From assembly GCA_002245135.1 (NCBI GenBank), contig NGBS01000017.1, positions 124,001 to 166,767 of the forward strand: a DNA stretch of 42,767 bases, written 5' to 3'. The notes beneath the pieces are model-generated. The model was not told the origin of the DNA. It did no database searches and saw only the letters and a list, made by a program, of their open reading frames with translations. Shown in pieces: positions 8,103-42,767 of the stretch; positions within the stretch are counted from its first letter, which is position 1; each line of letters starts with the position of its first letter. A program made the translations under genes and the position numbers. This DNA comes from Proteromonas lacertae. Lineage: Eukaryota.

Positions 8103-11100
8103 TTAAGGAGATTTTATACTCACACTATCATTAACATTTCTTCTACCACTTATATTTCTACTACTCACAGAATTATTCTTTGCTCGAGGAGACATTACAC
8201 TATAACTTTTACCAAACGCTTCTTCAAAAAAGAATTGTGGTTCAGATATTGTTGCCATTGCCATTTCACCTGCTTCAAGTATTTTTGGGGTTAAACGGAA
8301 ATCTACCTCGACTTGCTGCTGCTTTGGCTGATTTGTTTCTTTGAGTTCTAGAACCAGCAGAACTTCCACTTCTACTTCCACCTGCTGTTGAAGATCCAAA
8401 TGTTGATGATAATTCGGTTGTATATAAATACATTACTTTTGATCCAAATTGAACCAAGATTATCATAAATACACCGATTTCTATACCTAAACTTCTCAAT
8501 AACATCAAAGTATCAGTTTCACTAGACATTAAATAATCCAATGGAACTAATATCACACCCATAATTATCATAATAGCAATTGTCGCCATTAATGACATTG
8601 ATTCATTAAATTCAGCTGAAGCATTTCTCACACTCCATGCAAGTTTCGCACCCCAGAAGAATAATAGGAAAACAGCTACTAATTCAATTGCACTATTCAA
8701 ATAAAATAAATTAATAATAATAATAATAATATACACAAATGCTGTACTGGAAGTACATTCTCTCATATGAACATCATCTAAATAAGTCGAATAACCGCTA
8801 CTAAATGATAATGTCGGTTCAGATGGTGATACAATTTGCCATATAACTAAATACACAATTTGAATTGCTAATGTTAAACCAATCATTTTTAATAACATTG
8901 CATTTGATACTTTCACTTTCTGCAATTGTTTATTGTTAAACAATTTATGAATTCTCCATGCTTTACTAAACATAATACTAAATAATAAATCAATTGTTAA
9001 AGACAAACCCCATATTCTAATTGCACATATAATTTCATTATCAGCTAAGATTGTAAATACATCACCCATAACTGATAACAAAAATAATGAGATTAAAGCA
9101 TAATATAAAAACAAAGGACTTGCACTTTTGATTATTTTTGTATGTCGATAATAATATACCATTCCACTTACCAAGATACAACAAACTCCATTTATACAAC
9201 TGAAAGTAATAGATAAGTATCTATAAACTTCATTCAATTCATAAATTACATTATTCTTTGAGAATTGACATTGAGTATCATCTGCTGAAACATATGTCAT
9301 TTTACCTTCTACTATATACTCAATTCCTTGTTGTGGGAAAACTTGAATTAGTGATGTATCTGATAATTGGAAGATATAAATATCTTTTGAAAAATGATTA
9401 TTGTTCTCAGTTTTGATTGGACCAGAAGGACTATCATATGTTATATACTTCAAACTCAATTCAATATAATCATTACCAGGCCATTGACAATTACCACAAT
9501 TTGACATTGAATATTCTACCGCTTGTTTCCATGTGTAAATTGTACTATATGTATTTTCTAATATTTCATTTAGTTCAATAGAATCTTGATATTCAGCTGT
9601 CATTAAGTATTGAAATGCACCTGAAGCAGTGTTTGTAACAGTTGGTGAATATGATGTAACAACATAAGAACCAGTCAATTTCTTTATTACATCTTCACCT
9701 AAATCTAAAGGATCATATTTCATAAAGAATAAAACAGTGGAACTTGTGATTGATGATTGAATATAACCATTAATAAATTGAGTATTTTCACTAGCAAAGT
9801 ATAAGTTAATAATTGCTACACGATTCAACTTATCTAATTTTGTTTCTATATCTTTTAACATTTGTTCTACATACACTGAATTAAAGGGTGATAAGAATGA
9901 ATAACCAACTATTTCAATATGATCATTTTCATTATTAATATTTTCATTTACCTTATTAACTGATTTTTGTATTACATACAACTCAGTAGCGGATGAATTT
10001 CTATCACTTCCAACTACATATAATTTCTTTATTCCTAATGTCTTTATATAATCAATTAAAACATCAGATTTTTGATTGATATTTAATCCACCAACAACCA
10101 TATTCTTTTGGCATTCATAACCATCATCTCTTCCAGTAAAGAAGAATATTGAATTTTTATCTCTTATGTATCTACTTACTTCAGTTCTACATTCAGCGGT
10201 TAAACATCCAAACATTGTATTTGATTTTCCTATTTCATCAATCATTCTTGCATTTCTATAAGCATCAGAGATAGTAACCCAAGTATGATTAGCTGCAATT
10301 TCTCTACCTAAAATCCCTCCAACATCATTGATTTCTTTGACTATTAAATCGATTAGTAATGCATTATATTTCTCAGTTCTTCCGCCTAAATCTTTCTCAT
10401 GGAAGAAGGTAATAATGATTGGATTTGTATCATATCTTCTACCTCTATCTTTATTATAAAAATCACAAATCAAACCAATTTCACTTTCATTGTACTGATT
10501 ATAAATTGATGGTTTAAATGATTGTGTTGGTGACCAGTCCACAACTATTTCACCTATTGAATTAATCGTTCCACTGTATATTCTTCGATTGAAATTATTA
10601 TTTGGATTTACATCAACTGAGCCAGAAGGAGTTTCAACTGTATAATGATATAAATTAGTGATATCTTCATATAAGAATGAATTAGTTTTCTTAATCAATC
10701 CTTTCCAGAATGTTATAGCAGAATAAGCACTTTCATAATCTCCAATCACTTTGTGATCATCACCTATTTGTACATGAATATCTTTATTACAAGTTGGTGC
10801 TAATGTTGGAACTCCAACAGTATTTAATTCACTTTTACCTACAGATTCAAAGTATGAATCAAATGTCATAAAACCATTTAAACATTGTTTATTGTTATTG
10901 TTTGTAAATATTTTTTCTATCAAATTTTCATTGAATAATGAGTTGAGAATTGTGTAAGTTGGATAACTAATTCCATTTTGACATATTACTTCATAAAATG
11001 CTAGTATATCTTCATCATTTGTTAATATTGTAATAATATAACCTCCATTGGGTAATGCTCTTTGTATATCAGTTGCTAAACGACGAGTATTGGTTCTATC

Positions 11101-14100
11101 CATAATAACATTACCATTCGAAGTGATAATCAAATTCTTCATCTTTTCAGTCATTAAGTCAGAGATTTTATTTGCAAATTGATCAGCTGATCTTAGTATA
11201 AATGCACTGGAACTATATTCTAATAGTCTTCTCAACACTGCTTGAGTGATTTGAGAAGGATGTAAATGAGTTGATATAACATTCTGATAACAAGTATCAC
11301 CTAATGATCTCCCTAAGAAAAAGAAGAGTTTATTACTTCCAGTTAATATATCACCAATTCTCTCTAATGTTGAAGGTTTATAACCACCAAATATATAAGT
11401 ATAACGAGTATTATTGACTAATTTCAATAATTCATTTTCATAAATATCATCCGATGATTTTGTATCAATAACAGTGTAATTGATATAATTATCTAACAAT
11501 AATCCATTTCGATTAATATCACCAATTGCTGCGATTAAACTGTCAAAGATTGGAGTTTCAATTTCTCTATCTTCACCTGTCAAAGATAACATAATTAAGA
11601 TTGTATATGTTTGAACTGTATTTCCATCTTCTATATCTAAATTTGAAAAATCGCATTTCTTAAATACACCATTCACTGGTTCAAATGCTTCTGGAACAAT
11701 TGCATCAGTCGAATCATAGATTAAAGTACTTGTTTTATTTTCATTAAATTTCAATATTTTGGGTATTCTCGATAAGTACTGATTTACTCCAAAATATACT
11801 AATCCTTCTGGTGAATTGTATTTTACACTTCTTAAAGCAACTCTGACATTATTTCTTTCTACATTTGCTACATCTACATTCTCTTCTTTTTTATTTTTAG
11901 GTAAAGAATCTAAGGCAGTTTGCCATAGTTTAATTGAACTGTAAGTTCTAATCATAACATCTGATACATAAACATCTGAATCAATTCTTTGATATAATTT
12001 ATTCTTAAACTCCATATTAATATCAGAAGTATCATCAGGATTGTAGAATTCCATATATTCATAATTATAATAAGGTAACTTTCTCATATGTTGAGAATTC
12101 TCCATAATAATTACGTTGAATGGAATTCCATTTCCATTGGTTGCTTCGTTAATATTATCCATTAAAACACTGAATGAGTCTTCATATCCATAGAAGTATA
12201 TACAAACAGATTCTTCTTTCATCATTGCTAATTGAGATATAATCTCTCTTAAGTTGGAATTTGAAAATTCAACATCATTTACTTCATATTCAAATGTTGT
12301 AACATCTTCAATATTCATATTTTTAAGGTATTTCTCCACATATTTTGCATTATAATTATCTACATCACTATCAATGAATATCATCATTTTATCATAAAAT
12401 CTATTTCTTATAACATCTAATATCTTATCATAAAAACTCACATGTTTTACACCAACAAAGATTGGAGCATTACAATAGTTCAATTCCATTTCTAAAAGAT
12501 TAAAAAATATTAATTCATTTTCAGAAGCAATTAAACTATCAACTGCAGCAACACATTCACTTTCAACTGATCCAAATATAGCTAATGGATGATTCTCATT
12601 TATATAATCACTAATATATCTCATACAAATCTCCAAACTGCCTTGAGTATCATAAATATCAGTTTTTAATGAATAACCACCTATTCCTCCATTATCATTA
12701 ATTTCATTAGCTGCCATTTGGAAAATATCAACGTAACCTTCAGCATTTTTAGAGGTTGATAATGCAGCAATCAATCCAACTCTTTTTATTGCAACTTTGT
12801 ATTTATAACCAATCTCAGGTGTTCTTTCTGAAAATGAACATTGATATCCATAACTTGATGGAATGTTCCAATTCCAAGGAGAAGCACTTTGAACATCGTA
12901 TTTGCTATAAATAGTTTGATAAGTCAAGCCGTCTGGATTGTATCGAATCACAAAGAATGGAGCTGTAACGTAATTATTATCGTTCATTGTAATTATTCCA
13001 CTACCAACTTGGAATGATACTCCATACGATCCTTTTCTTACTTTTTCTGTATCAAATGAATCAGCCTTTTTCACAGCTTCAGCATATAAATGGACAGCAG
13101 AATAAGATGCTTCAAATAATGAAGTTGGTTTATCTAAACTAACATAATCTAATGCTTTATTTAAAAACTTCTCATTCTCTTCAGTTGGTAAATCATATGA
13201 GTATCTGACTATTTTATATATATTTTTTCTATCTTCAGCTGGAATTGTATCTGTTTCTTCAACTTCAAGGAATATATCAACAACAGCATACTTATCACTA
13301 TCAATATTCAATCTACTGTAATACTCCATAAAACTCTTAAATACTTCAATTGACACAAATGTTGAAATAATTATTCCACCTTCACTCATTTTAGATTGAA
13401 TATCATTGAATAAATTGTAAGTTATTTGGCTTGTTTCATTATAATTAAATGATCCAACTTCATTAATTAAACCATTTGCTTCACCTTTTATCATTGTTGC
13501 TAAATTCTTTGAATCTGGTTCATCTTCTGTAAGAATATAGTAATTATTCTCATAATCTACAACTAATAAAAACTCCATTAATCTTGTGATAAATTGATTA
13601 GAAACCATTGATGTATAAAATGTATTATAATCACATTCTTCACCAGCTGTAATTCTTGGGTAGTAGAACAATTTATTCGTTTCTACGGCTACTTTTTGTA
13701 CAGCATTCTTACAGACAGGTTCTGTACAACCAACATATGCGACAACATCTTTATCTTGTTTTACTTCATCCAATATACTCTCTAATTTACTAACATCACT
13801 ATTGAAATTTATAAATTTCACTAAAAGTCGATTTTCTTTGATTTTGTCACCATCATATAATTCTCTTAAAGCTGTCATAGCACCAAGAAGAGCTTTTTCA
13901 TGTGTTTTCTTATACATTCCAGCTGTAGCAAATACTAATACAATCTTCTTTACAGGAACATCAGTAACAATTCTTTCATTACGTAAATTACATTCTTTTA
14001 CTTCTTCATTATCTTCTAATACATTACCATAAGCTCTTTGTGGAATAGCAAAGGATGTTTTTTCAATTATTTCATATGAATAATCGTATGATAAAACATT

Positions 14101-17100
14101 TCCATCTTCATCATCTTCTTTTACTACTTTACTGCCTCTCTTTAGATACATTGGCATTGAAAATCTGTTATTTGAATTAAAATGGATTTTACCTAATACT
14201 GTATCTGATTCATGATCATATAAAGCATCTTTTATTCCTCTAAATGTAACTTCAGAGTTTCTAGAACAATCAGAAACTAAGTTTGCAAAAAGAAAACCTC
14301 TAGCAGTTGATTTACTAATAACAGGAATATAAGCAAATAATGAAGTAAATGTAGCTTTTATATCAGAATAAAGTTGATTTGATTCATCTTCAGCAAACGT
14401 ATCATAATAATAAGTTCCAACAGCTGCTTCACCTAATTTATAAATATCTAAATCACCCATATTTAAACACAAAACAGTATAAAGTGCGAATAACTGAGAT
14501 TGATGTAAAGATTCTATAAATGAAGACTTACTTACACCTTCTAACATTGAAACAATCAATGCACCATCTGGAGATAATCTTTCAATATAACTGACTGCTT
14601 CACTCATATCTTTGTTTTCTAATGGGAATTGTAAATATACTTCTGGTATAATATTGAAAGTATTTAAATCATACTTGAGTTTTTCAGCATAATAGTTAGA
14701 ATAAATAGTATCAGAATATAATAGAATCACTTTACCTGGATTTAACTTCATTATTGTTGGAACTAATGTATAATAAGTTGGATATCCAATTCCACCATAA
14801 AATCCATTTTCATGACATTCATTTGCTTCATAATCACGTGGGTAAAACAATAAACTATTCGTCTCAACAGCAGCTTGATGTAACACATCTCTTATATCTG
14901 AAGTCCATCCTCCGAAGAATAAAAACATATTATATCTCTTTGCATAATCAATCAGTATACTCCTAGTTTCATTTAATGTAGTTCCTTCTACAATAATAAG
15001 CATATTTGCAGAAGTTCCTTTTATTCCACCATTTTCATTGATATGAACAAATGCAGCATAAACAGATTCAAAAAATAGAACACCATCTGCTAAATACAAT
15101 CTATTCTTAGGAATGACAATACCAATTCTAGTAAATGGAGCTTCAAATTGATCAACTTTTCTATCTTTCCAATCACAGATAATATAATTTTGTCTATTTA
15201 ATGTAACACGATATGTTTCTCCTCTCCAATCTCTACTTACGTATTCTAATAGTTGAGTATCTCCATCTTTATTGATTGTACCAAAGAATATTGTTTGCGC
15301 AACATGATTACCAGAATCAACAGCTATTTTACCCATCACTGATTCTATTTCAACTTTATAAATAGAATCGAACAATTGAGTAGTATTATCATAATTAATA
15401 ACTGAAGAAAACAATGACAAAACCCATGCAGTAGAATCATATATTAAAATATCAGAATAGGTTGGTTGTGAACCACCAGTTAATTGATTATATAATTCTT
15501 TAAACTCAACATTATGTTTATCAGATGGATCATAAATATCAGAAGTGTAGATATAATGACCTTCAGAATGAACAGCTGGTTCAAATTTACGATGAGTATC
15601 ATCGATTAAATAGATTGTATATGTCTCTGCAATGTTTATTGTATCTCCATATTCTTCATTGAAATATTCATAAAAATATTTGAAAAACATCTCAGAATTT
15701 TTCTTTTGTAGCATTACCAATATTACTCCTCCATTTGGCAATACATTCTCAAATATTCTACATAATCCAATTACTTGTAATCTTATATTAGTTTCATCTT
15801 TAGTAATATCAAGTTCAGCAGTATGTAATAATTCTATTTTCATCTCATTAAATACAGAATTAATCAAATTAACTCTATTTTTATAAATCTTGTTATTAGA
15901 ATGGACAAAAGTGAAATCTCGAATTGATTCTCTCATAAACAAATGGAATAGATATGGAATAACATCTTGAGATGGTGATGTTGACATATATATAGTTCTT
16001 TGGGAACAATCTTCACCTTCATTAAAACCAGTATAAACTAATAACAAACTTAACGCTTCAATTGTTGGTTGCATTGCTTCTCTTGATGTTGGGTTACAAC
16101 CGCCAATAAATACTTTAAATCCTCTTTTATATAATGTGATTAATACAGAAGCAGCTTCTTTTTCTGTTGTTGGACAGTCATAAAGCTCTGAAACGACTGT
16201 ATTTCCATTAATTCCACCATCATAATTGATCTGTTCTATTTTAGATAAAGCTAAAATGTATTTATTAAAACCATCATCACTAAAATCTAAGAAATATGCA
16301 ATTTTGATTGGATTATATTCTCCTAATTTACCAGAATCACCTGTTTTATATGAAACAGTCATATATTTCATATCATTTTCAACAAAATAATATGGATAAG
16401 GCATTATTGGAAAGACAGTATTAACTACAAGTTCAAACTTATCATAATCAACACATTTCAATATCTTAGAATATGAACTTGCCCAATTAGAAGTAGTTAT
16501 TTTCCTTTTTCCTGAAGGAGAATCAATTTCAACCAAATATAATTGGTTGATTATTTCATCTGAATTTAAAACTTGAATATTTGGCACAACAGCTTTTAGG
16601 AATAAGAATATATCATACATAAATACACCTTCAGTTGTAACTAATGTTTCTTGTCCTTTATAACCTGTTATATCACTTAACATCTTTTTATTTGCAGGAG
16701 TTTCACTGAATCTATAATACGAAATAATACCATAAGCATTTCTGAAATTATCATCATAATATGAATGAGTTCTATAATCGAATATGAATAATGGATAAGT
16801 TGTATTATCAATTGATTGATTATTATATTTTTCCACAAAAGTTAAGGTATAAGGATCAGTGAATAAAAACAAAGCAAATTTATCACTGTTTGAAGTTTCT
16901 GTTTTGATTTCTTTTGCTATATCTTCAGCATTTGTTGAATTTAGTTCTTTAATGAATAATATATCTCTTTTGAAATATGTACTATAAGCTTCTAATAATG
17001 CAAGACGATTAAGATTCAAACTATATATTATATAAATATATAAATATAAATACTCAGTTGTTACATAAACAATACCAATTTGATTATATCTCGTATAAGC

Positions 17101-19954
17101 ATAATATAATGGAATAGAAACAGTTTGATGAGGTAAAAATGCCATTTGAATAATGAATTTATAATTTCCATTACCTTCTGGTGCACTAATTGCAAATATA
17201 ATCACTCCCAATTCTTCGGTTTTCTTATAAACTGCTTTTCTTTCAGCTTTAGTATCAGTACCAATGAAGCATAATATATTATCATATCTCTTTACATATT
17301 TTTCATATATTCCTGCAATTGTTGTTGGATCTCCTTTATATTCTGTTTGTAGCACAACTAAATCTCTTCCATTTATTCCTCCATCTTGATTGAATAAATC
17401 AATATTCAACTGCAATGTTTGTAATCTTGCCTTACCTGCATCAGTTGATAAATCAAATAACACACCAATATAATAGAAACTATAGGTTGATACTCCATTC
17501 TTATCTAAATAAATAATAATGAATATTTAATTATATATATACTCTTCTTCCAATTACAAGTCCTTTCTCCATCAATGAAAGTATTTTCAATTCTGTTAAA
17601 AGCATCTTCAAATACTAACAAAGAAGCACCTGTAGCATTCAATTCAACAATTCTAATTCTTCCTATACCATATCCATTATAATATATCTCAAATGGACCA
17701 GCAATAGCATTTTCTAAAGAATCATGATAAATATATTCCAAATAATCAGAAGGCTTATAATAAGATCTTATCGTTACTGCATTTCCAAATATATTAATCA
17801 TATTTAAAGCTAATCCCATAGCATTAGTAAGAGGTAAATCATATCCACATTGCGCTTTCATATATTCTCTAAATCCAATTAATAAATTATATTCGTTACT
17901 ATCTTTATCATCATAATAATGTGTTAAATATTTCACATTTTCCATTTTATTAAAGCCAATATTTCGTGCAATTGCTTCATTGAGAGTAAATGACAAAATT
18001 GTATAATTCTTATTAGCTACAATATTCTTATTAATTAATCTTTCAAATAATTTAATCTGATAATCTTGAGTAGCAGTTATAATAATAAAACCACTCTTTA
18101 AATAATCCAAAATGTTCTTATCAATCACTTTATCAAGGTAAATATCATCAGTTTGAACTAAATAAGACACTGAAATATCAGTAGTTATATATCCTTCACC
18201 ATTCAGTTTATTAATCAAAGATTCAGTCACTATCCTTCCATAATGATCACCGCTGGAGACGATTACATATTGTGGATTTTCAAATGTATTTAAATATTGC
18301 ACAGTACATTGTATATAATTCATTGCCATTGGATTTACATATATTACATTCTTTAAACATTCATCTCCTTCGCTTGGACTTAGATAGAAGAATTGAAAAT
18401 CTTCTTCTACCAACAGTTTTGCTAATTGCATTCTTTCTTCTGCTGAACATACTAGAATGCCTGAATGAGCATCGAATCTTTCTATATTGTCTATTATTTC
18501 ATCACTTACTTCTCCCATAGTTTTATCATCCATATTGACGAATAATTGTCGAATATGTTTACCTGCTATTCCTCCATTTACATTCACTCTTTCAATCATA
18601 TATAAAAAGAATTCTCTTAGATATCTATTTTCCGAATTTTCAATTCCTTTGATTCTCTGAATAAACATCACTATTAGTGATGAATAATCAGATAATCCTT
18701 CTTTATGATTGAGAGTAAAATTACAAGTTTGATTACCTATTTCACCCATTATATTGGTTGGTTCAAATGATGTTGAAATCGTTATTGTATAAGATGGAAC
18801 ATATGGATCAGATCTAGCACCATCTTTTTGAAATAAATGTTCAGTTGTCGATGTATAGTGATTTTCTAACAGCACTAAATATCCACCAGCATATGGTATT
18901 TGCTTATTATACATTACTGTTAATAAGTCAAGGATATTAGTGGATTTCAATTGGTCTAATGCGTATAATAACATATTCATTATTCCCAATCTATTTACAA
19001 AATAATATAATAAAAATATATTTAAATAATATACATATAAACTTCTTCATATTGATTTTCTGAATTTAAGAAAGATTTATATTTGTTTTGATATTCTACA
19101 CTATATTCATTACTACTATTAAGATATTCATCATAACCTCTTAAATGATAATTCTTTTCATTATTTGCTGCTGTTTCAAATGTACCTTGATCAAACCCAG
19201 AGGTTAATACAATAACTGGATAATCTTCATTATTCAAAGAATATGTATTTACTTTTAAATCTAAAAATTTACTATACATATCTTTATTCCAGGAAGACCA
19301 GTATGTTACAACCGTTTTCTTTGAATCTGTAATGTTCTGAAGGTATTCTTTAAAAACATCTTCAGTTAATTCGATATGATGATAATTTCCCATTTGAGAT
19401 TGACCAAAATAGTATGAAGCTGGAAATATTCTTTCAGAAATAAACTCATCGATTGGTCTACTATCACCTATAAAGCCTACTGCTTCTACTTTTGCTGACA
19501 TGAACTGAGCAACTATTGATTTATATAATCAGATTATTTTCATACGAGTTTCGATATTGTTAATCATTGAATTTCCCATAATAAAATTTTTGGAACATCT
19601 ACCTTCATTGTAAGTGTTTAAACACCAGATAAATATTCCCTTTTCAGTTAGATAGTCATCGACTGTGCTATTCATTACTTCAGGAGTGCAGGTTGTATAA
19701 TAGAAAGACGGCTTAGGATTAGCAACAGCATTAAGAGTTTTAATCAACTCTTCTGGAGAGTCAGCATATTTATACTCTTTGAATTCTATTTCTATATCAC
19801 CACTTGCAGGTAAATGATCAGTCATATATTTATTTACCATATTTAGTCTATTCAGATCATCTGCAGGGTCTACAATTGTTCTAGTGAGATATCCTATATC
19901 TAACTTAAATGAATTTACGGAATATAAAACAATAAATAATAACAACACTTTCAT
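8103..19954 (-). CDS. Giant class C (GABA-B/mGluR-type 7tm_3) GPCR with nine tandem UrtA/AmiC-like periplasmic-binding (Venus flytrap) domains, ~3,870 aa
   Basis: Signal peptide MKVLLLFIVLYSVNS. ORFs 19529-19954, 19022-19501, 17505-18989 and 8275-17463 join in frame through introns 19513-19545, 18991-19034 and 17505-17542. In-frame introns 17021-17053 and 8693-8734 are read through by the ORF track; a probable intron 8270-8306 extends the tail to 8103 (otherwise stop at 8275). IN.xGG(I/L)xG repeats every ~1.18 kb. 7TM motifs: IIKSASPLF, C.IRIW, FSKAWRIHKLF, VRNASAEFNES. Confidence 0.88.
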
Positions 19955-20097
19955 TATAATACAAATTTAAATTATCGTTTCAAAACGACTATAAATACAA
20001 AGTTGTGGTTAATTCGCCACATACCAAATTGATATGTGATAGGGTTATTTTTTAAAGTACAAACAAAAACAAATTGCAATACAAGAAACTGTTATTC

Positions 20098-24496: not shown

Positions 24497-25483
24497 TTAT
24501 AATTTCACAACTCCACTAACAAGTGCAATCAAAGCCATTCTTACATACATACCATTCTCCATTTGTTTAAAATAAGCAGCATTAGGTGTATCATCAACTT
24601 CTTCTAAGATCTCACCAATTCTTGGTAAAGGATGCATAACAATCATACCAGGTTTAGAAATTTCTAGAGTTTTCTTCGATATAATATATCTGCCTTGATA
24701 TTTCAAATATTCTTCTTGAGTTGGGAATCTTTCTTGTTGAACTCTAGTGACATACAATACATCAGTTTCTTTCAAAATATCTTCAGTCAATTCTTCAGAT
24801 ACATTCTGAGTGATTCCTTTCTCTTTGATTTCATCGAATACACAGGAAGGCATTGATAATTCAGATGGTGATATGTAATTTAATGTAACTTTAAACATCG
24901 ATAATAATCTTGACAAAGAATGAACCGTTCTACCATATTTCAAATCACCTACCATTGTTACGGTTAAACCGTCAAATGTATGATATTGATTGTAGATAGT
25001 ATACATATCTAATAAAGCTTGACTTGGATGTTCTCCATCACCATCTCCAGCATTAATTACTGGTTTGGGGGTATATTGTGATGCCAAATCAGCAGCACCG
25101 CGTTGTGGATGACGTAATGTTATTATATCACAGTAATTTTCTAAACATCTCACAGTGTCTTGTAATGTCTCTCCTTTTTTAGCTGATGATGTTTCTGCAC
25201 CAATTTGAATTACATTACCACCCAATCTCATCATAGCAGCAGCAAATGAGGAAGATGTTCTTGTTGAAGGTTCTAAAAACACATTTGCCATTATTTTTCC
25301 TTCCATAAGTTTGCATGAACCGCATGTCTTTACGATATCTTTCATTCTATCAGCTACAGTCAATACATCGAACAGCTTCTCTACATCGAATTGTTTTACG
25401 CATAAAACATCCAATCCTCTCCAAGCAATAAGATGACGTTTTGTCTATAAAAATATAAACATTTATTCATTTAATACATCCAT
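24497..25483 (-). CDS. pyrB: Aspartate carbamoyltransferase, stand-alone catalytic chain
   Basis: FLEPSTRTSSSF, KKGETLQDT, RHP, INAGDGDGEHPSQALLD, VGDLKYGRTVHSL, YVTRVQQER, MHPLPR. Two-codon first exon (ATG 25483) followed by a short intron. Confidence 0.96.
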
Positions 25484-32079: not shown

Positions 32080-34475
32080 TTAGTTAATATATTTTCTTCT
32101 ATACAATCCAACTATTATTCCATCATCTAAACTTGTAATACGAAACGCATCAGTTTGAGGGCCTTTTGGGAATAAAAACAACTTCCCACCACATACATCA
32201 GAAACAACACATCTATTCTTTTCTTTCATATACATCAGCAATCTATCATATCCTTCTCTATCTGCAGTAGAATATGGCATCATATAAAACAAAATATGAG
32301 GAGTTGAACATTGAGCTACATTAATAATTGCATTGAAATTTGTTCTTAATGGAAAATCAATTGTACTTGGAAATCTAACCATTAATGGATCGATTTGTGC
32401 TTGAAGTAAAAAAATACTTGCAGTACAAAAGAAATCATTTTGTTTACACAATCTACCACTCCAATATACTTGTTTTGGATCAACATCATATTTTCTCAAC
32501 ATATTTTGTTCATTATTATTAAATTGATGATCTTGAGGTTGTTGTTGTTGTGAATATTGATAAGAAGGCATTGGAGGAATGCTAATACTATTATTATTAT
32601 AATTATTGTATGAAGGAGAAGCATTTGAAGTAGATGGTTGAAAAGATGATTGTGGATTTGAATAATAAGAATTATTATATGAAGGTTGTTGTTGTTGTTG
32701 TTGTGATTGTGAAAGTAGATATGATGGTGGAGGTGATTGATTATAATATGATGACGACTGTTGAGGAGATTGAGATATATGAGATGGAGAATTATTATAT
32801 CTTGGTGGACTTCTATCTCTTCTTTTCCATTCATCATCATCATTATTATTATTTCTATTAAATGAAGATGAAGATGGAGATGAACCCCATTCATTATTAC
32901 TGCTTCTTCTACCACTATTATTTTGATTATCTTTTTCTGGACATTCTCTTGCAAAATGACCTGTTTTATGACATATAAAACATTCTCTTCCACCACTTCC
33001 ACCACCTCTTCTTCCAAAACCACCTCTTCCTCCTCTGTCTCTAGAATCACTTCCAAATCTACTACTACTACTACTACTACTACCCCATGAATCATTACTA
33101 AATTTTCTATTACTGCTTCCCCATGAATCATTTGATTTTTGATTTCTATCACTTGAACTTGCCCATCCATTATTATCATCATTATTACTACTATGTTTAG
33201 AATCTTCAATTGGATGTTTCCATTCATTATTATCATCTTCTTTTGTTTTACTATTTCCCCAACTACTTGATCCATCTCCCCAACTGCTTTTATTCTCCAT
33301 AGGTTTTGATTTTTCTTCTTCTTTTACTGTTGTTGCTATTGTTTCAGTTTTTGATTCACCCCATCCACTTTCATTATTTCCCCAATCATTATTGTTACTA
33401 TTTCCACTATCATTCCATAAATCATCAGGATTAACCTTCAGTTTTTCTTCTTCTTCTTCTCTTTCATTTCTTCTTCCACCTCTTCCTCTTCCTCTTCTTC
33501 CACCACCTCTTCCTCCTCTTCCACCACCTCTTCCACCCCTTCTATTATCACTTCTATATTCAGAATCAATGAGTTTTTCTTCTTCTTCTTTCTTCTTAGC
33601 TTCTTCTATTTTACTACTATCACCCCAGCTATTATCTTCATTTCCCCAATTATTGTCATTATTATTATCACCCCATAATTCATCAACATTCACTTTAGGC
33701 TTTTCTTCATCTACTCTTTTATCATTATTACTTCTTTCTCTATTATTTCCATTATCCTTACTTGTGATGTGTTTTTCTTCTTTCACTTTCTTTTCTTCTT
33801 TTTTTGATTCTCCCCATCCACTTTCATTATTTCCCCAATCATTATTATTACCACTATCATTCCATAAATCATCAGGATTTACTTTTGTTTTTTTCTCTTC
33901 CATTTCTCTTTCATTTCTTTTTCCATCTCTTTCTCCTCTTCTATTGTCTCTATTTTCATTTCTATTCTCACAGTATGATGGCTTTTCTTTTTTTTCTTTC
34001 TTCTTAGTTTCTTCTTTTTTACTACTATCACCCCAGCTATTATCTTCATTTCCCCAATTATCATTATTATTATTATCCCATAATTCATCAACATTCACTT
34101 TAGGCTTTTTTTCATTATTATTACCATCTTTGAAATTACTTCCTCTTTTGTATGACGGTGTACATTTCTCATATGAATCTTCACGTTTAGGTTGAGATTT
34201 CATATACTTTGGAGATGATTTGCTTTTATCAATTTGAGGAGTTGAGTTGACTGTAGAACATTCATTAGGAATATCTCTTAATTCACCTTCTTCGACTATT
34301 ATAACTATATTTATTCAAATATACGTTCATTATCTTCAACTTTTTTATTTTTATCTAATCCATCACTATTTAATCCGGTGTGATTATTGTCATTTTCAAT
34401 TACATTATTATTGCAACTTGTATCTACTGCTAATCCTTTGTTTTGTTCTGTTTCAGATTTGCCTTCAGTTTCCAT
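32080..34475 (-). CDS. WG/GW-repeat, RGG, CCHC zinc-knuckle and C-terminal SPOC-domain protein (~790 aa)
   Basis: ATG 34475; intron 34296-34324 joins in frame to ORF 32080-34203 and creates LEEGEL. About 15 WG/GW motifs, RGG boxes, CFICHKTGHFARECP, and SPOC-like VYWSGRLCK...FPSTIDFPLRT...RLLMYMKEKNRCVV...KLFLFP. Confidence 0.8.
33350..34110 (-). repeat. Intragenic duplication of a two-part WG-repeat module
   Basis: KPKVNVDELW..NNWGNEDNSWGDSSK at ~34015-34110 and ~33608-33705; KVNPDDLWNDSGN.NDWGNNESGWGESK at ~33802-33885 and ~33350-33440. Copies are near-identical at DNA level. Confidence 0.9.
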
Positions 34476-34704
34476 TGTAATATATTACTGAATCGAAATA
34501 ATCTGCAAAATAATGTATGGATTGCAACAAACTTTATGATAAAGAGAAAGAGCTAAAAATTGATTTATCACAATGCTTGAGCACTCAAATCATTCAAATG
34601 GGTGTTGGAAAATTTTGGATTAGTTATTTTCTTCTCTTTTTGTTTTTTTGCAGTAATTAGTGAATATTTATAATATACATAAGCACATATAATATAAATG
34701 CATG

Positions 34705-34830
34705 AAATCCTCTTTTATAGAGGATCCTCTTCTAAAAGAGGATTTTTAGATCCTCTTTAAAAGAGGAAATATAAATTTTATAAAATCCTCTTATTAAAAA
34801 AGATGACAAATGAAAAATCCTCTATGCTAA
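34705..34830. repeat. Cluster of short TCCTCT(T)...(A)AGAGGA palindromes/hairpins
   Basis: AAATCCTCTTTTATAGAGGATCCTCTTCTAAAAGAGGATTTTTAGATCCTCTTTAAAAGAGGA: three overlapping hairpins, followed by further AAATCCTCT half-sites. Confidence 0.8.
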
Positions 34831-34957
34831 ACATAATATTATTGAAAAAATTTGAAAAGTCTACTGATGAATTATTAAAAATTCTTCATCCAATATGATA
34901 CCATCATACTAGAGGATTATAATTTATTATGTGTCTATCTGACCAGCCCCCCTGTGG

Positions 34958-35015
34958 GGGGCCGATGGGGGGATGCCGGCGGGTGGAGGACTAGACTATA
35001 GTATAGACTAGAATA
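34958..35015 (+). repeat. Left arm of (sub)terminal inverted repeat
   Basis: GGGGCCGATGGGGGGATGCCGGCGGGTGGAGGACTAGACTATAGTATAGACTAGAATA is the reverse complement of 42711-42767 apart from one extra C. Confidence 0.95.
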
Positions 35016-35131
35016 TTATAAAATGTTATAGAAGAGGATTTGAAGTGTCTATTACACTATAGTTATGTATTTAGATCAAAAGAGGAAAAACAAAAGTCAT
35101 CTCATAAAGAGGAATTATCATTATCATCTAA

Positions 35132-36553
35132 TTAATGTGCACCTTCCAATGTCTTGATTCTGTCTTCAATAGGCTTCAATCCTTCTTTAACTTTGCTAAC
35201 ATCCTGCTGTATTGCATTAATTTCATCTTCATAATCATCTTTGGCTTTTTTTGAATCTATAAACTGTTTCTTGTAAGATGCTTTGTCAGGGAAGTTCTGG
35301 ATATCTTTAGAATTGTACTGCTCTTTATACTTATGCATCTCTTTGAGTAATTCATCCATTCGAGCTGATTTCTTGTAAGCCTTGTTCATTTGATTTTTCT
35401 TGTATTTCATTAATTCTGTCTTCAGGTACTTACAGGTGTTGATGGACAGGATGCTGATGTACTTTGTTAAAGATCCTTTGTCGTACCATTGATTAATACT
35501 GCACTTCTTGTTCAACAGCATCTCGAACAGTTCTGAATCTGTGTACCTCTTTGAAGGATCTGGTGGAGGAATTTCAGCTACTTTTCTCTGCTTTTTCTTT
35601 TCATCCTCCTTTTTTACTGACTGAGGTCTTTGCCTCTTCTTTGCTACAATTACTTTTTCATCATCTGAATCTGTATCACTTTCTGATACTATAATCTGAG
35701 GAATATCCTCCTTTTCAATTTCTTTTACTACTTCTTTGACTTTCTTCAATTTGCTTAGATCCTTTGGAGGAATTGTTTCAGGAGAGGATTTAGATATCTT
35801 TTTGACATTAAACTTATTCAGTATTGATGTTTTTTGTAACACCTCTTTAATAGGATCTGATTTTGGTTTTGGAGGAAGCTCTGGAGGTGGTGGTTCTTCA
35901 AAATCATCATCAGGTTCAATAATAGATGCATGTTTTTTTTGCCATTCTTTTTGACGTTTAAATACATTTTTTGCATGTTTAAGTTTTTTAAGGTGGTTTA
36001 ACTGTTTCTCTCTTTCCTTTTCATCTAGTGATACTATATCCTCTTTATCACTTTCTTCAAGATCTTCATCCCTGATTTCTTTAAGTTCTTTGAGGAATTC
36101 CTCTTTTTCAAGCATCCATTTCTATGTATATATAAATAATCAAATATACCTCAGGACTTTTCTTACTTTCCTCTTTTTCACTTTCCTCCATTTCCTCCTT
36201 TTCCTCCATTTCCTCCTTTTCCTCCTTTTCCTCCATTTCCTCCTTTTCCTCCATTTCCTCCTTTTCCTCCTTTTCCTCCTTTTCATAATGTTTCCAAGTC
36301 TATTGCAAGTATAATACATACAAAATATACTCCAGCAGGATTGTCATTTAGTTGATTAATAAATGCACCAAGTTGAGAGTATAATCCTCTCACAACAGCA
36401 TCATCCTCCTTGCTCCATTTTTCACGGGGGTAAATTGGTTGACTTCCCAAGAACTTAGTAAAAGTCCTACATTATATAAATAACAAAATATTACCTAGTA
36501 GCTTCTGCTGTAGCAACTGTTAATTTCAATATCTCAGTAGTATTAATTTCCAT
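35132..36553 (-). CDS. Element-encoded spliced hypothetical protein: charged, proline-rich middle, coiled-coil C-terminus
   Basis: ATG 36553 (an in-frame ATG also lies at 36574). Three ~28-31 nt GT..AG introns join MEINTTE..., TFTKFLG...REKWSKEDDAVVRGLYSQLG..., the (EEK/EEM)n exon and ORF 35132-36115 in one frame. Confidence 0.7.
36183..36286 (-). repeat. 9-bp coding minisatellite GAGGAA(AAG/ATG), ~11 copies
   Basis: Plus strand (TTTCCTCCA/T)n, encoding EEK/EEM repeats. Confidence 0.9.
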
Positions 36554-36768
36554 ATATTTGAAAATTCTAACCATAAAAATGGCAGGAAAACTCAGAATGA
36601 AAAGTAACGGCAAATTTACTTAAAAAGTAACGGTCGATTATGATTGGAGGATTTTCCTTCGTTACAAAAACCGTTATTTTTTACGAAAAAAGAGGATTTT
36701 CGAAACCCAAAAAAGGAACTTAGAAAAAAATCATTAATTAGGATTTTAAAATTACTCTATAACATTTT

Positions 36769-37098
36769 CTAAATTGTATCAGAATATTTTGACGGAGGAT
36801 AGTGTAATCTTCCACTGCTTGTTCTATATGTCTTGTTTATGGAGGATAATTCCTCATTTTCTTCAATAATATCCTCTTCCTCATCATCCTCTTTTTTATT
36901 TGTGCTTCCCAAATTATGTTGAATTTCCTCAACAACTTCAATGACTTTAGGAGGACAATATGCTTTATAAGTATAATATACAATTTTGATGACTTCTGTT
37001 ACAACCCAAAGGATGACATATACTAAGAGGATTCCTATACTTTCCTTGATTTCCTCAACATTTGTCTCTAAGACAGTCTCATTATTTTTTGATAACAT
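36769..37098 (-). CDS. Element-encoded small single-pass membrane protein
   Basis: 109-aa ORF with hydrophobic stretch IGILLVYVILWVVTEVIKIVYY and an acidic then basic tail. Confidence 0.6.
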   Translation of the reverse strand: MLSKNNETVLETNVEEIKESIGILLVYVILWVVTEVIKIVYYTYKAYCPPKVIEVVEEIQHNLGSTNKKEDDEEEDIIEENEELSSINKTYRTSSGRLHYPPSKYSDTI

Positions 37099-37164
37099 TT
37101 TGTAATTATGAGAGTATAATATACAAAAACAACAAGAAAATTAAAAATGAAATTAATTATTGTT

Positions 37165-37569
37165 TTATTCATCATCATCATCATCATCTTCATCTAAAGG
37201 ATCATATAATAAATGAAGCTGTAAATATCTTCTTTGTCTTACGTTAAGATTTCCACGAAGCAAAATTGGAGGATTAGGCGATGGATTAAAGATTAATTCA
37301 GGTAAATCAAGTTGCATAGATCTCATTCCGGTTCCAATAAACCATAATTCTGGTTCATCATTAACATCGCTAGTACGATATGGTACTACATGAATCCATC
37401 TATCTCCACCCATAATAATATTCTGTAATACTTGAGGATTAAATTTGATATACCATATAATCTGATATGTATTTCCTCTATCTATTACCGCATACCTGTA
37501 TAATTTGCAAACTACAGGTCCAACATTATTTGCTTTTAATGAAAAAGTATTAATTCTATATCTAGGCAT
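37165..37569 (-). CDS. Element-encoded hypothetical beta-rich protein with acidic tail (~134 aa)
   Basis: True ATG at 37569 (MPRYRINTFSLK...); ends DEDDDDDDE*; no family recognised. Confidence 0.6.
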   Translation of the reverse strand: MPRYRINTFSLKANNVGPVVCKLYRYAVIDRGNTYQIIWYIKFNPQVLQNIIMGGDRWIHVVPYRTSDVNDEPELWFIGTGMRSMQLDLPELIFNPSPNPPILLRGNLNVRQRRYLQLHLLYDPLDEDDDDDDE

Positions 37570-37639
37570 TTTGAATATATATATATATATATATTCTAAA
37601 AACAACAAGAAATATGAAAATAAAGATTAATATTAGAAT

Positions 37640-38521
37640 TTATATTTCCATTTCCTCACTATCTATTTCCTCATCATCATCAGGTTCCTCATCCATTGCA
37701 GAAGGAATGACAACATCAATCTTTCTTTTCTTTGGAGCTGGTTTAGGACATAATTCAACTTTTACTTTTCCACTACTTGAATCTTCCTCTTTAACATTTC
37801 TGTTTCTTTTGTTGTCTTTGTTTATCATAATACTCCTTCTTTTTTAAGCGGCATCTTTCACAACTTTTGTTTTTGTCACCGTTTGGCTTTGTTGCAAAGT
37901 TCTCTAAAGGAAGGATTTTGTTACATGTAGAACACTTTTGTGATCCTTCTGGTACTGGAGCTGATTCCTTCTTCTTTTTAGGAATAGGAATGGCTTTATC
38001 ATCTTCTTCCTCTTCATCATATAACCAAGAGGATTTTAACTTTATCCATTCACTAGCATCACAATCCTTTCCTGCAAACCTAGCTACTTGAACATTAGTA
38101 AACTTCACAGAATAATATCCTTCCTGATCCTCTTTTGGTTTTTCTAATTTCATCTCAGATACATGTCCAATGAAAGTTAACCATCTATTTAAATGAGGAG
38201 GAAGGTAATCACTCACTAATCCTCTTGCAGATTCTAACTTAGGAATATTTCCCATTTCTAACATTTGCTTATCACCCATGATTTCCTCACTAATTCAGCT
38301 TCATACTTTGGTTCAGGATTACTTTCCATTTCATCAACATTGTTTTCCTTACACCATCTCTCATAATCCTTAATATAAGGCTTTTCATATTCACTTTGTG
38401 ATACTGGTTCAGTTTCACAATTTTCTAAATCATCTTCATCACTAGTTATAGTAGAGTTATCCTCCTCAGCCTCCTCTTCTACATACTTTTTAGAAGTAAA
38501 GTATTTTTTACCAGAACTCAT
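37640..38521 (-). pseudogene. Element-encoded C4 zinc-finger protein with NLS, split by two frameshifts
   Basis: ORFs 38258-38521, 37791-38279 and 37640-37828 overlap briefly and read as one protein: acidic N-terminus, KCSTCNKILPLENF...SCERC, PAPKKRK, acidic tail. Confidence 0.6.
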
Positions 38522-38729
38522 GATTTTTTAGAAGTTAAGTTTTTAATAATAGAAAAATAGCAAGAAAATTGCAAATAAAAAAGTAACGATTTTTAAGTAG
38601 ATTTTTAATTATCCAATCAAAATTTAGTATACGTTTGTATTGACCAATTATATTAATTGACCAATTATTTTAAAGTATATTCATTTTTTGTTTTCTTTTT
38701 TAGTTTTGAATTTTCATAAGTATAAAATC
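38522..38729. promoter_or_regulatory. Divergent promoter of the element with CCAAT boxes and AAAAGTAACG motif
   Basis: Lies between ATGs at 38521 (minus) and 38730 (plus). ATCCAATCA ~38612, TTGACCAATTA twice (~38640, ~38657), AAAAGTAACG ~38579. Confidence 0.55.
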
Positions 38730-41700
38730 ATGAATAAAAGGAAGAATACTGATAAGCAGAAGAAATATGCTTTAAATGCAAAAACTCATTTATTAGAAAA
38801 GATGTTTAGAAAATGAGGATAGTACTTCCCAATATTTCATTAATGCAACTAGTAAAAGAAGGAAAATAAGTGAATCCTCCTATATGAGGAATTTAAATAA
38901 TAATCCTCGAGTACATATTATAAATCCTGATTATGGAATGTATTTTGGTGGAGGAGATGATGATATGGATGATGATAGAATTCATCCTCCAAGAGGAAAT
39001 TTAGAGGAAAGAATAAAAAGGTATGAATTAGAAGGACAATCCTCTGAAGGAGTAACAAGGAAGTACGTTACTAATTTAAAGGATATTCATCTTCTTACTC
39101 CAGAAGATTATTATAATTTCATTGTTGATAACACAGATGTTGCTTTAAGAATAAGTGAAATAGCACATGAAATGAAAAATATTAAAGTATACTTTGTATT
39201 TTGGTATGTTTATACTTCTTCGGAAGATGAATCAGGTGAGGAAGTATCCTTATTTCATAATACAAGAAATATATTAATAAATGAGTATGATAGTCCTGCA
39301 TCAGTAGCAGCAAAGATGCGTTCCTTATTTCATTCTATTAATGAGGATGACTTTTCTCCTCCAGAATCTGGTTTAATATTCCAATATATGGATTTAATGG
39401 AAACTCATATTAATCAATACCAAATTATGGCAGGAGCAGGAGGAAATTATCATATACCTGATATATTTAATAATAAGTATTGTTTAGATCCTTGTGAAAA
39501 TAAGGATAATGATAATATGGATTGTTTTTGGAGAGCAATTAATTCCTGTTTAAAAAAAAACATTTACCTCAAATACAACCTAGTAGCGATTTTATTACAA
39601 TACCAGTAGCTCCTGTTAATAATCCTGATATAGATAAAGTAGAGCAAACTTATGATTTAAACATAAATGCATTTGCAATTGATGAAGAGGAAAAGGACAA
39701 ACCTAAAATCCTTCCATTAAGATATAGCATAATTGATAAGAATGTTGGTAATCCTGTTATTAATTTATTATTCCTTCCTAATAATAATGATACTACAGAT
39801 GAAGTAATTACAGGACATTATTGTGCAATTAAATCCTTAAATCAAGTATTTAGCTTAGTTTTTGGTGTAATATTTAAGAATAAAACAAGTCCTTTGGTTT
39901 GTCCTTATTGTCCCTTTTATACTTATAATGCAAAATCATTTGTAAATCACAAAACAGTAAATTGTCAAAATCCTGATAATGTAATAAGGATATTTCCTGA
40001 TAAGGATAGTGAGGAAGCTTTTATGAAATTTGAACATTCTAACAGAGAGGATATGATTCCTGTTGTTATTTATTACGATACAGAAGCATACATTGTCCCT
40101 ATTGATAATTCTCAGGAAAAGACAAAAACATTAAGATCCTTCAAAAATGAACATAAGTTAAAATCATATTGTTTATATATTGAAAGTAAAATTCCTCAAA
40201 TTAAATCTACAACTATTATGAATGTGAAGATATCCGAAGATGAAAATTTAGAAAAAGAATTTATGGAGGATATCATGACAGTATATAAAGATGTAAAACA
40301 CTTATATAATATAATAAACTTATATCCTAAAGATTGGGATCAAAATGAGGAAGATTTAGCTATTCATATGAGTAAAACTGTTTGTGATTTTTGTAATAAA
40401 CCTTTTACTCCTTTTGATCCAAAAGTCCTCCATCATAATCATTTCACTGGAAAGTACATTGCTTCAATTCATTCCAAAGAGAACTTATCAATTAAAGTAA
40501 AAGGATACAAGATTCCTATAATTGGTCATAACGCTATGAGATATGACCAACATTTCATCATTAGAGAACTTGCAGAAATTGCTAAACAGACTGGTTTAAA
40601 TTTGGATATCCTTCCTTCTACTGATGAAAACTATAAAGCTATATTCTTTGATAGATTAATGTTCATTGATTCATACCAATTCCTTTCTGAAAAATTATCT
40701 AGTTTAACAGAGGATTTAAAGATAACAGCTTTAGAGTTAAATTGTAAAAAGGAAAAGTTTAAAGTCATTTATGATAACTTTCCTGAGTTAGATGAGGAAA
40801 TCATTGATAAGTATCTTCTTCAGAAAAACTTCTTTCCTTATGAATGTTGATTGTTTGGAAAAATATGATAATCAATTTAAGGATTTGAAGATTCAGGATT
40901 TCTATTCAAGTTTATCCAATTCAACAATAACAGAAGATGAATATAAGTTTGCAATGGAAGTGAATAACATTTTGTTTGAAGGAAAAGCTTCTATAGGAGA
41001 ATATTGTAATTTCTATTTAAGTATTGATGTTTATATCCTATGTTCAGTATTTGAGGATTTTAGACAAAACATCTTTAATCACTTTCATATTGATCCTTGT
41101 TGGTATGTTTCAATTCCTAGTTTATCCTTGGATTTGTTCTTGAAAGAAATTCATGAACCTGAAATATATGATTTCATCCTTAATGGATTATATGGAGGAT
41201 TATCCTATATAGGAAAGAGGAAAGAAGATGCTAATAATTTCTATATGAAGGATTATGATCCAAAGAAACCTTCAAAGTTTATTGTTTATCAGGATATGAA
41301 TTCCTTATATCCTTCAGTAATGTATTTATGTAAACTTCCTATAAGGAATTATCATCTTTATTGTTATGAAGATCCTGGTTGTCCTAAACTTCATGAGATA
41401 TTAGATTCTACTAAATTCTATGATAAGAATGATTCCTTTGAAACTACAGGATATATGTTAGAAGTGATATTGAACCTATTTCCTATTATAAGGAGTATTT
41501 AAGAGAATATCCTATTCTACCTTCAAGAAGGAAGATTAGCTATGATGAATTGTCAGATATACAAAAAGAAAAATTAGAAGTATTATACTCTCAAAAAAGG
41601 ATGATCAGAAAAATCTGATGTTCATAAATATGTTTCCTCTGAAAAGTTAGTTACTGATTTATTGCCTAAGGAACATTATGTCATCCATTATCAGAATCTC

Positions 41701-42659
41701 AAATTTGCAGTTGATCATGGATATAGAGTAACAAAAGTATATAAAGTACTAACTTTCTTGGAAGTAAACATATGTCTAAACATATTGATCAATTAAAGGA
41801 TATGAGAGTTCATGCGAAGGAAATGCATCAAACATCTACTGCTAATATTATGAAGAATTACTTAATTCACTTTATGGAAAAACTTTAGAAAGAGTTGATA
41901 AGAGGAGAAGTATCAAATTAGTAGTGTCAGAAAATCAAGCAAGAAAAGCTATTAGAGATCCTTGGTTGATAAGATAGATACTATTCACGGAGATTTGAGA
42001 TTAGTACATTATCATAAAAAGATGTTCAAAATTAATAAACCTATTCAGATAGGTATGACAATCCTTGCTCTTTCTAAATTATTAATGCAACAGTATTGGT
42101 ATGATGGAGTATTACATTACAATTCACCAAAGATGTTAGACTCTTAATGACAGATACTGACAGTCTCCTCTTTTCTGTAAAGACTAAAGATATATATTGA
42201 ATTTCAATCATCTTCAAATATATAGATGGAAGTAATCTGAATATGCCTCCTTTCAGTAATTACTACAAATGGGATTCATTATCATGTAAACCAGGAACAT
42301 TAAATAAACTCAAGTTTGAGGAACAGGATGGTAAGAAATTCTATGTCATCACTAAGTTTAGAGGATTGAAATCCAAATGTTATTATTATGAAAAGGAATG
42401 TGTTAATGATGGTACACTCAAATCCTCCAATAGATGTAAAGGATTAATAACAGCTATAGCAAGTAAGATGACAGGAGATGATTATACTGAAATGGTTGAT
42501 GGATATGTTTCTAAACAGAAGTTTGGTATTAATCATATTAGAAGTAGAAATCATCATATCTATACTGCTTATGAAGAAAAGATAGGACTTACATATTTTG
42601 ATGATAAAAGATACTTTGAGGATGATTATGAAACAGTTCCTTATGGATACAATAATTAG
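38730..42659 (+). pseudogene. Protein-primed family B DNA polymerase (Polinton/adintovirus type), with ~8 frameshifts and one in-frame stop as sequenced
   Basis: ExoI YYDTEA, ExoII HNAMRYD, FIDSYQFL, QKNFFPYE, ExoIII YLSIDV, GLYGGLS, motif A QDMNSLYP, motif B NSLYGKT, KPIQIGMTILALSK, motif C MTDTDSL, KSKCY, FDDKRY...TVPYGY*. Also a C2H2-like finger (CPYC...HKTVNC) and an endonuclease-VII-like insert (CDFC...HHNHFTGKY). Confidence 0.9.
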
Positions 42660-42710
42660 ATTTCCTCTAATATTATATACTGATTCTATATTCTTATTTT
42701 TGTTTTAGTC

Positions 42711-42767
42711 TATTCTAGTCTATACTATAGTCTAGTCCTCCACCCCCGGCATCCCCCCATCGGCCCC
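42711..42767 (-). repeat. Right arm of (sub)terminal inverted repeat, truncated by the window end
   Basis: TATTCTAGTCTATACTATAGTCTAGTCCTCCACCCCCGGCATCCCCCCATCGGCCCC is the inverse of 34958-35015. Confidence 0.95.

Follow-up and report, generated by a model that had tools for sequence, protein, structure and literature searches.

A shortened copy of a Polinton-type polymerase element, with predicted host-type introns, beside protist genes

The stretch of DNA analyzed here, referred to as the window, comprises 42,767 nucleotides (nt) deposited under Proteromonas lacertae (assembly GCA_002245135.1, contig NGBS01000017.1, forward-strand positions 124,001 to 166,767). Its right-hand part carries a Polinton-type element of 8 kb with a protein-primed DNA polymerase (pPolB) pointing right, genes A to D pointing left and terminal inverted repeats (TIRs), joined to host DNA. 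Our main finding is that this element is a shortened copy, in which gene A appears to unite the halves of two separate genes. An earlier reading made from the letters alone, hereafter the original prediction, had described a minimal self-replicating element whose tightly packed genes left no obvious room for missing ones. The copy is not intact and the argument from packing is not upheld, because gene A bears a deletion scar, with the junction at 38016/38015.

The pPolB gene (38730-42659, plus strand) was identified by a match to Pfam DNA_pol_B_2 (PF03175, E 2.7e-9), by its motifs and by 82% identity to an intact protein of 1318 amino acids, P0001. All the motifs sought are present: the terminal-protein link region, the Cys and His of the vOTU domain, Exo I-III, Pol A, B and C, and KxY. 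An endonuclease VII-like insert accompanies Exo I-III, the terminal-protein domain was assigned by position and alignment, and the vOTU catalytic pair (Cys/His) is intact. A metagenome scan yielded only two distant Polinton loci, L001 and L002, which were taken as controls; their polymerases align with that of the window at 26% and have the same domain order. This terminal protein-vOTU-Exo-Pol architecture is the one described for Polinton-type polymerases (bioRxiv 2024.03.18.585575). Three intact relatives of 1318 amino acids are at least 99.5% identical to one another and 82% identical to the window copy, and a second lineage, of 1301-1303 amino acids, is 40% identical to the first. The family is diverse, since P0002, P0003 and P0133, found on contigs of 4.7-6.5 kb, add two more lineages to this polymerase clade, at 36-41% identity to P0001. 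No confirmed locus was found in IMG/VR with the polymerase piece, the polymerase alignment, A1 and A2 (the two components of gene A), gene D or the repeat pattern as queries, and prokaryote genomes held no relative of the polymerase. Three matches of the 17-nt repeat pattern in prokaryote genomes showed no further similarity around them and were dismissed as chance.

The original prediction of a single rightward pPolB is correct as to its presence, but the gene is interrupted by 12 frameshifts. Eleven of them are losses of one or two bases and nine lie within the 0.8 kb between 41465 and 42218, while the gene as a whole contains no in-frame stop and a single in-frame loss, of seven residues. 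Introns were rejected as the cause, as the breaks are shifts of one or two bases relative to an uninterrupted homolog. Given that 6.1% of random substitutions create a stop, the probability of finding none would be 0.22, 0.10, 0.02 or 0.0005 at assumed ratios of 2, 3, 5 or 10 substitutions per indel. Assembly error is a more likely explanation than decay, because the changes are mostly base losses, are clustered and include no nonsense codon, and because host frames of up to 3083 codons are intact. Artefacts of the frameshift type have been described where protist assemblies contain viral insertions (PMC10120064, section 7).

Gene A lies on the minus strand. When the query 37794-38279 was compared with 1.84 billion cluster representatives, 17 matches were obtained, the best two of which cover different halves: P0157 (305 amino acids) matches query residues 1-88 and P0158 (242 amino acids) residues 89-161, whereas the remaining 15 match the zinc ribbon only. 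By tblastn, residues 1-173 of the 305 of P0157 map to 38521-38016 (49% and 64% identity, E 2e-54) and residues 123-236 of the 242 of P0158 map to 38015-37655 (62% and 47% identity, E 6e-31). P0157 and P0158 are not related. Gene A therefore reads as an in-frame fusion of the N-terminal 173 residues of one gene, A1 (38016-38521, one frameshift), and the C-terminal half of another, A2 (37640-38015, one frameshift), the switch falling at 38015-38016 where the P0157 and P0158 matches adjoin. At least 765 coding bases appear to have been lost at this one junction, because the other 132 residues of P0157 and 122 of P0158 are nowhere in the window by tblastn. A1 has 305 amino acids in all nine members of its cluster, and A2 has 242 in all six of its own.

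The A1 half consists of an acidic N-terminus followed by a beta-rich domain that the junction interrupts midway, and the A2 half of a C2C2 zinc ribbon with a basic and acidic tail. The zinc ribbon of P0158 matches PHROG 1035 (E 2.7e-4), a kind found beside endonuclease VII/HNH domains. A natural single gene was considered and rejected, as A1 is cut inside a domain and no fused relative exists among the 17 matches. Of the four leftward orphan genes originally proposed, all four units are present, but gene A combines parts of two genes, both of which have relatives. The predicted model of A1 has a pLDDT of 32, and neither fold nor sequence comparison gave a match in the PDB; the idea that A1 is an OB-fold single-strand binding protein has no support beyond an impression from the strand pattern.

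The deletion, the join to host DNA or both could instead be artefacts of long-read assembly at the end of the contig, arising from chimeric or collapsed reads, in which case the organism would have only intact copies, integrated elsewhere or free. Consistent with this, the same stretch contains 14 frameshifts (12 in the polymerase and 2 in gene A), hence poor read support, and the contig ends within a repeat. The junction nevertheless keeps the reading frame and is precise, the genes nearest to the host join (B, C and D) run through 2070 coding nt without a frame break, and the host gene beside the join is apparently whole; we regard such an artefact as improbable.

The extent of the element is marked by a four-base signature. 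AGGA/TCCT occurs 222 times in the element against 44 expected from host frequencies, an approximately five-fold excess, and GAGGA/TCCTC 91 times against 10. The density of AGGA/TCCT is 24-27 per kb in the element, compared to 5.5 per kb in the host and 4-8 per kb in L001 and L002, and the enrichment extends over both strands across 34700-42767. It is real and is not due to synonymous codon usage: in the 5604 nt of element coding sequence, AGGA is found 87 times against 54 +/- 6 in synonymous-codon shuffles and TCCT 79 times against 41 +/- 4, the maxima reached in 200 shuffles being 71 and 50, and host genes have no such excess. We can only guess that a protein of the element binds the motif, or that the motif is a target of modification. 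Periodic spacing of the AGGA sites was considered and rejected, as none was seen.

The GC-rich inverted repeats that had been predicted to bound the element are well supported. Their arms, first called at 34968-35023 and 42703-42758, could be extended to 34958-35023 (left, plus strand) and 42703-42767 (right, minus strand), giving 66 nt at 94% identity (E 5e-23). The longest stretch over which they match perfectly in inverted orientation measures 35 nt, whereas 30 shuffles gave 12-18 nt. The repeats had been taken as the bounds of the element, but its left end is probably near 34700, outside the GC-rich repeat, because a change-point in AGGA/TCCT frequency falls at 34708 (9 log-likelihood units better than 34958), because hairpins are arrayed there, and because the region 34690-35030 has a folding z of -6.5. 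The array, within the probable outer left end (34700-34957), consists of three TCCTC-N5-10-GAGGA units at 34705-34770 followed by an AT-rich spacer and a C6-TGT-G6 hairpin. Three such units are present in the 101 nt of 34700-34800, one in the remaining 7967 nt of the element and none in 34699 nt of host DNA. The window stops inside the right TIR arm, and the right end, its flank and any target-site duplication of the 6-bp Polinton kind lie beyond it. The full terminal repeat is likely about 320 nt long, with some 260 nt of the right-hand copy missing. No Rfam family was matched within 34400-42767.

Which Polinton genes are lacking was assessed on 84 stop-to-stop frames of at least 35 amino acids (75 frames plus 9 of the polymerase), compared with Pfam at its curated cut-offs. 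Apart from the polymerase, none of the 84 reached a cut-off, and no rve, recombinase or ATPase family was recognized; 5 of the 75 gave sub-threshold matches, of which the only notable one was DUF772 (E 0.02), antisense to the polymerase. The control was positions 1-13429 of L002 (13.4 kb), a compact and apparently complete Polinton block with a polymerase, an rve+chromo integrase and what we take, from size, order and motifs, to be capsid, protease and ATPase genes. Pfam detects the control integrase (E 2e-8), so the absence of rve from the element is meaningful; it misses the presumed capsid and ATPase genes of the control, so the negative result says little about these two. By tblastn, no non-polymerase gene of L002, integrase and ATPase included, matches the element, and the integrase matches nothing in the whole window. 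The single Walker A-like string, at 36672, belongs to a frame of 46 codons that separates gene C from gene D, and none lies inside a gene. An Ulp1/adenain-type protease gave no match in the element, the control protease itself reaching only E 0.057. For the sequence present, the statement that no integrase, tyrosine recombinase or A32/FtsK ATPase is recognizable thus holds. The companion claim, that there is no capsid open reading frame, stands only in part: none was detected, but its absence is not established, as Pfam misses the presumed capsid genes of the control and gene B, which is rich in beta structure, is of penton size. Gene D alone is large enough; charged residues make up 44% of it, against 24% of the presumed capsid of the control, which Pfam likewise fails to detect.

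Gene D (35132-36553, minus strand) is predicted to encode 444 amino acids in four exons. Among all combinations of three candidate GT-AG introns (36467-36494, 36300-36330 and 36122-36149; 28, 31 and 28 nt), the frame is open in one model only, that with all three removed, so the gene is predicted to carry three spliceosomal introns of host type. Residues 35-66 resemble a host Myb repeat (score 56 against 22.9 +/- 4.3, with none of 1000 shuffles as good), and Pfam gave no Myb match; beyond this Myb-like N-terminus and an acidic run, the body of the protein is probably a coiled coil. The acidic KEE/MEE run in exon 3 corresponds to a 9-bp tandem repeat of about 14 copies (36160-36293), which would interrupt short-read contigs. 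In the 3' part of the gene (35200-35560), third-position G+C is 0.46-0.60, compared to about 0.1-0.3 elsewhere in the element and 0.13-0.17 in the host, with a value of 0.44 in one other 50-codon window of gene D; this patch was possibly acquired or recombined recently.

Gene C (36769-37098, minus strand), an open reading frame of 109 amino acids, has one predicted membrane helix (19-residue hydropathy of 2.3 from residue 21) and an acidic tail, and its Pfam matches are all sub-threshold. Gene B (37165-37569, minus strand) is a beta-rich orphan of 134 amino acids, without a homolog of 73-235 amino acids or an Atlas match; its predicted model has a pLDDT of 40, and the best fold match a Z of 4.2, with no E below 0.08. 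Its composition is close to that of the presumed minor capsid of L002 and its size is penton-like, so gene B could encode a minor capsid (penton) protein. A 32-nt motif is repeated at 37121-37152, 37594-37625 and 38549-38580, in each case 30-40 nt ahead of a gene start (C, B and A, respectively). With its TGTTGTT-like string, the motif could be the 3' signal of the upstream gene, a promoter element, or both. For nine open reading frames of the window, no exact sequence was present in the protein collection.

The window is eukaryotic. It has about 27% G+C and intact host frames reaching 3083 codons, its predicted introns are of about 30 nt, and TGTTGT/TTGTTT-like strings, judged by eye, are found after the stop codons of several genes of both host and element. 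Introns of the 30-nt class and a TGTTGTT motif are reported for Blastocystis (PMC10690189), whose isolates in that study have G+C contents of 21-23% (tortoise) and 39-55% (human), neither of which matches the window. The aspartate carbamoyltransferase gene (24497-25444) has a Blastocystis sp. protein as its top named relative (59%, 400 bits), ahead of oomycetes (386 bits), a thin margin, and two further relatives at 95% and 91%. From the intron size, the TGTTGTT-like motif and this relative, the host is probably Blastocystis. The host gene nearest the element (32080-34475, minus strand), which starts about 225 nt from the probable left end, encodes W/G/N-rich repeats, RGG boxes and a zinc knuckle and is apparently undamaged. 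Farther away (8275-19966, minus strand), the 3083-codon frame and its neighbours give the impression, from their translation, of many tandem periplasmic-binding-type domains that end in seven membrane helices, as would a giant class C G-protein-coupled receptor.

The element would be transcribed in the nucleus, because it has predicted spliceosomal introns and host 3' motifs, and these features bear out the nuclear location originally proposed. As for its origin, we consider it moderately likely, and more so than any alternative, that it is an internally deleted copy of a larger Polinton-like virus of the MELD type, probably of a Blastocystis host, whose integrase and virion genes lay in the lost middle. 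In favour of this, the hand-over from A1 to A2 is clean, at adjacent bases and between unrelated proteins, and one of the two Polinton loci with the same polymerase domain order carries an rve+chromo integrase. Moreover, section 3.4 of PMC8502044 describes a Blastocystis virus with an Alpha-adintovirus-like PolB, an integrase and divergent virion genes. By analogy with the family (bioRxiv 2024.03.18.585575), replication would be primed at the ends of the repeats by the terminal-protein domain of the polymerase, and the vOTU protease of the polymerase would then release this domain. The parent would have entered the chromosome through a retrovirus-type integrase, and one deletion would then have linked the N-terminal part of A1 with the C-terminal part of A2, sparing both ends and the polymerase and leaving the copy reliant on an intact sister for integration and packaging. 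Most of the frameshifts would stem, not from decay, but from errors in the consensus of a contig end that is repeated and was poorly polished.

The size of the parent was estimated only from the longest-contig values of the relatives' protein clusters, on the assumption that these relatives share the layout. A1 and the polymerase have the value of 6671 nt in common, whereas A1 (nine variants) and A2 (six variants) share none. Read from the right end, the 6671-nt contig has 1221 nt left past A1; A2 needs 789 nt, yet no A2 variant is recorded there. Added to the longest A2 contig (6654 nt), it gives 13.3 kb, similar to the 13.4 kb of L002; a parent of this size leaves about 4.1 kb, not far from the 4.9 kb or so taken up by the stretch from integrase to ATPase in L002. 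With A1 and A2 as neighbours, the parent would measure about 9179 nt, with no space for an integrase or a capsid gene. The parent was accordingly either about 9.2 kb or at least 13 kb long, the latter with room for both, and the contigs weakly favour the larger size.

Several points weigh against a larger, integrase-bearing parent. The lost stretch has never been seen, and no integrase or capsid gene is linked to this polymerase clade. The 4835-nt A2 contig fits a layout of about 9.2 kb, in which 4856 nt separate the left end from the start of the polymerase, and all seven Logan contigs with the clade are of 6671 nt or less; host contigs of the same collection are also short (7-10 kb). The contig argument is weak, being one of lengths that presumes a shared layout, and the relatives belong to other strains or species (64-82% identity). 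The methods of PMC10120064 state that spliceosomal introns are absent from such endogenous viruses, and gene D is predicted to have three. The A1/A2 junction, finally, could itself be an assembly artefact.

In part, the same evidence agrees with a parent that replicated in the nucleus as a compact linear molecule, about 9-10 kb long (pPolB, A1, A2, B, C and D), which never had an integrase or a major capsid gene and from which the deletion took just two half-genes. It would copy itself by protein priming, rely on host transcription and splicing, and either be integrated or packaged by a helper Polinton or be a free linear molecule joined to the host by the assembly. The minimal intact length of 9179 nt, of which the 4835-nt A2 and the 4843- and 4869-nt polymerase contigs would be the two halves, speaks for this, as do the lack of any clade contig above 6.7 kb and the introns and host-type 3' motifs, which point to long nuclear residence. 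Set against it, the 6671-nt contig with polymerase and A1 lacks an A2 variant despite the space, the copy adjoins a host gene region, so that an integrase would be needed from somewhere, and a full Polinton-like virus is known in the same host genus; we judge such a parent unlikely.

The near-equality of the longest contig with polymerase and A1 (6671 nt) and the longest with A2 (6654 nt), together with the lack of a longest-contig value that A2 shares with A1 or the polymerase, would also suit a genome split into two segments, each of about 6.7 kb, that have terminal repeats in common. In that case pPolB, A1 and more would lie on one segment and D, C, B, A2 and more on the other, the window copy being a recombinant or chimera of the two. 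Bidnaviruses, with two segments that have matching termini, provide a precedent (PMC8502044), although their vOTU is inactivated and the catalytic pair is intact here. Since the equal lengths may be due to chance or represent the halves of one broken contig, and a single deletion explains the junction in fewer steps, we consider a segmented parent quite improbable.

The original prediction had proposed a nuclear linear-plasmid-like replicon, a Polinton satellite or one segment of a split genome, possibly a new class, and these proposals are weakened, since with a deletion scar inside gene A the gene set of this copy cannot be read as that of its family. As a sign of an internally deleted Polinton, it had named longer sister copies with integrase or capsid genes: the scar does indicate a deletion, which goes halfway towards that sign. 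Blastocystis may still carry a family of nuclear, intron-bearing, protein-primed linear replicons that lack both an integrase and a major capsid gene and measure about 9-10 kb, or consist of two segments of about 6.7 kb each. AGGA/TCCT would mark their entire genome on either strand, possibly as sites for the Myb-like protein D, and the window would hold a slightly shortened copy; we offer this as a tentative possibility that we tend to doubt.

Among known systems, the element resembles Polintons/Mavericks ('adintoviruses', Polintoviricetes), with which it shares the domain order of the polymerase, including the catalytic Cys/His and the endonuclease VII-like insert, the TIRs and the join to host DNA. 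It differs by its length (8 kb, against about 13-17 kb for L002 and in PMC3014272), by the lack of an rve integrase and a Walker A ATPase, and by a divergent layout, an intron-bearing gene and a deletion scar. The copy is thus Polinton-like at the level of replication and falls outside the group by its integrase and ATPase. The Blastocystis MELD virus (Starrett et al. 2021, PMC8502044), named 'Blastocystis MELD virus 3996' in bioRxiv 2022.05.25.493380 and compared here by description only, likewise has a Polinton-type PolB and probably belongs to the same host genus, but it has an integrase and inferred virion genes, neither of which is recognizable in the window copy. Fungal linear plasmids of the pGKL type are also linear and TIR-bounded with a fused terminal protein-pPolB, but they are intron-less and cytoplasmic or mitochondrial, whereas the element has predicted introns and host 3' motifs. 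These plasmids carry an RNA polymerase gene, and none was seen in the element. The cytoplasmic plasmids retain an active vOTU, in contrast to bidnaviruses (bioRxiv 2024.03.18.585575). Transpovirons and Tlr1-type elements are further capsid-less linear parasites with pPolB-derived replication proteins, in which a superfamily 1 helicase is fused and the exonuclease lost (same source); the present element instead keeps Exo I-III, with no helicase seen and a polymerase that ends after the KxY region. The literature searched, mostly outside subscription journals, contained no account of this element, nor of any pPolB element in Blastocystis that lacks both integrase and capsid.

Taken as a Polinton-like copy with a deletion, the element is of modest significance: it points to an uncharacterized clade of pPolB elements, with several orphan genes, in protists like Blastocystis, and at least two lineages of this clade (1318 and 1301-1303 amino acids) have intact polymerases. 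Whatever the size of the parent, two features are of specialist interest, namely that a Polinton-like element is predicted to have spliceosomal introns of host type, and that a four-base signature runs through its genome beyond what synonymous codon usage accounts for. Should the parent turn out to be 9-10 kb long or segmented, the linear plasmids that are thought to derive from Polintons would have in it their missing counterpart in the nucleus.

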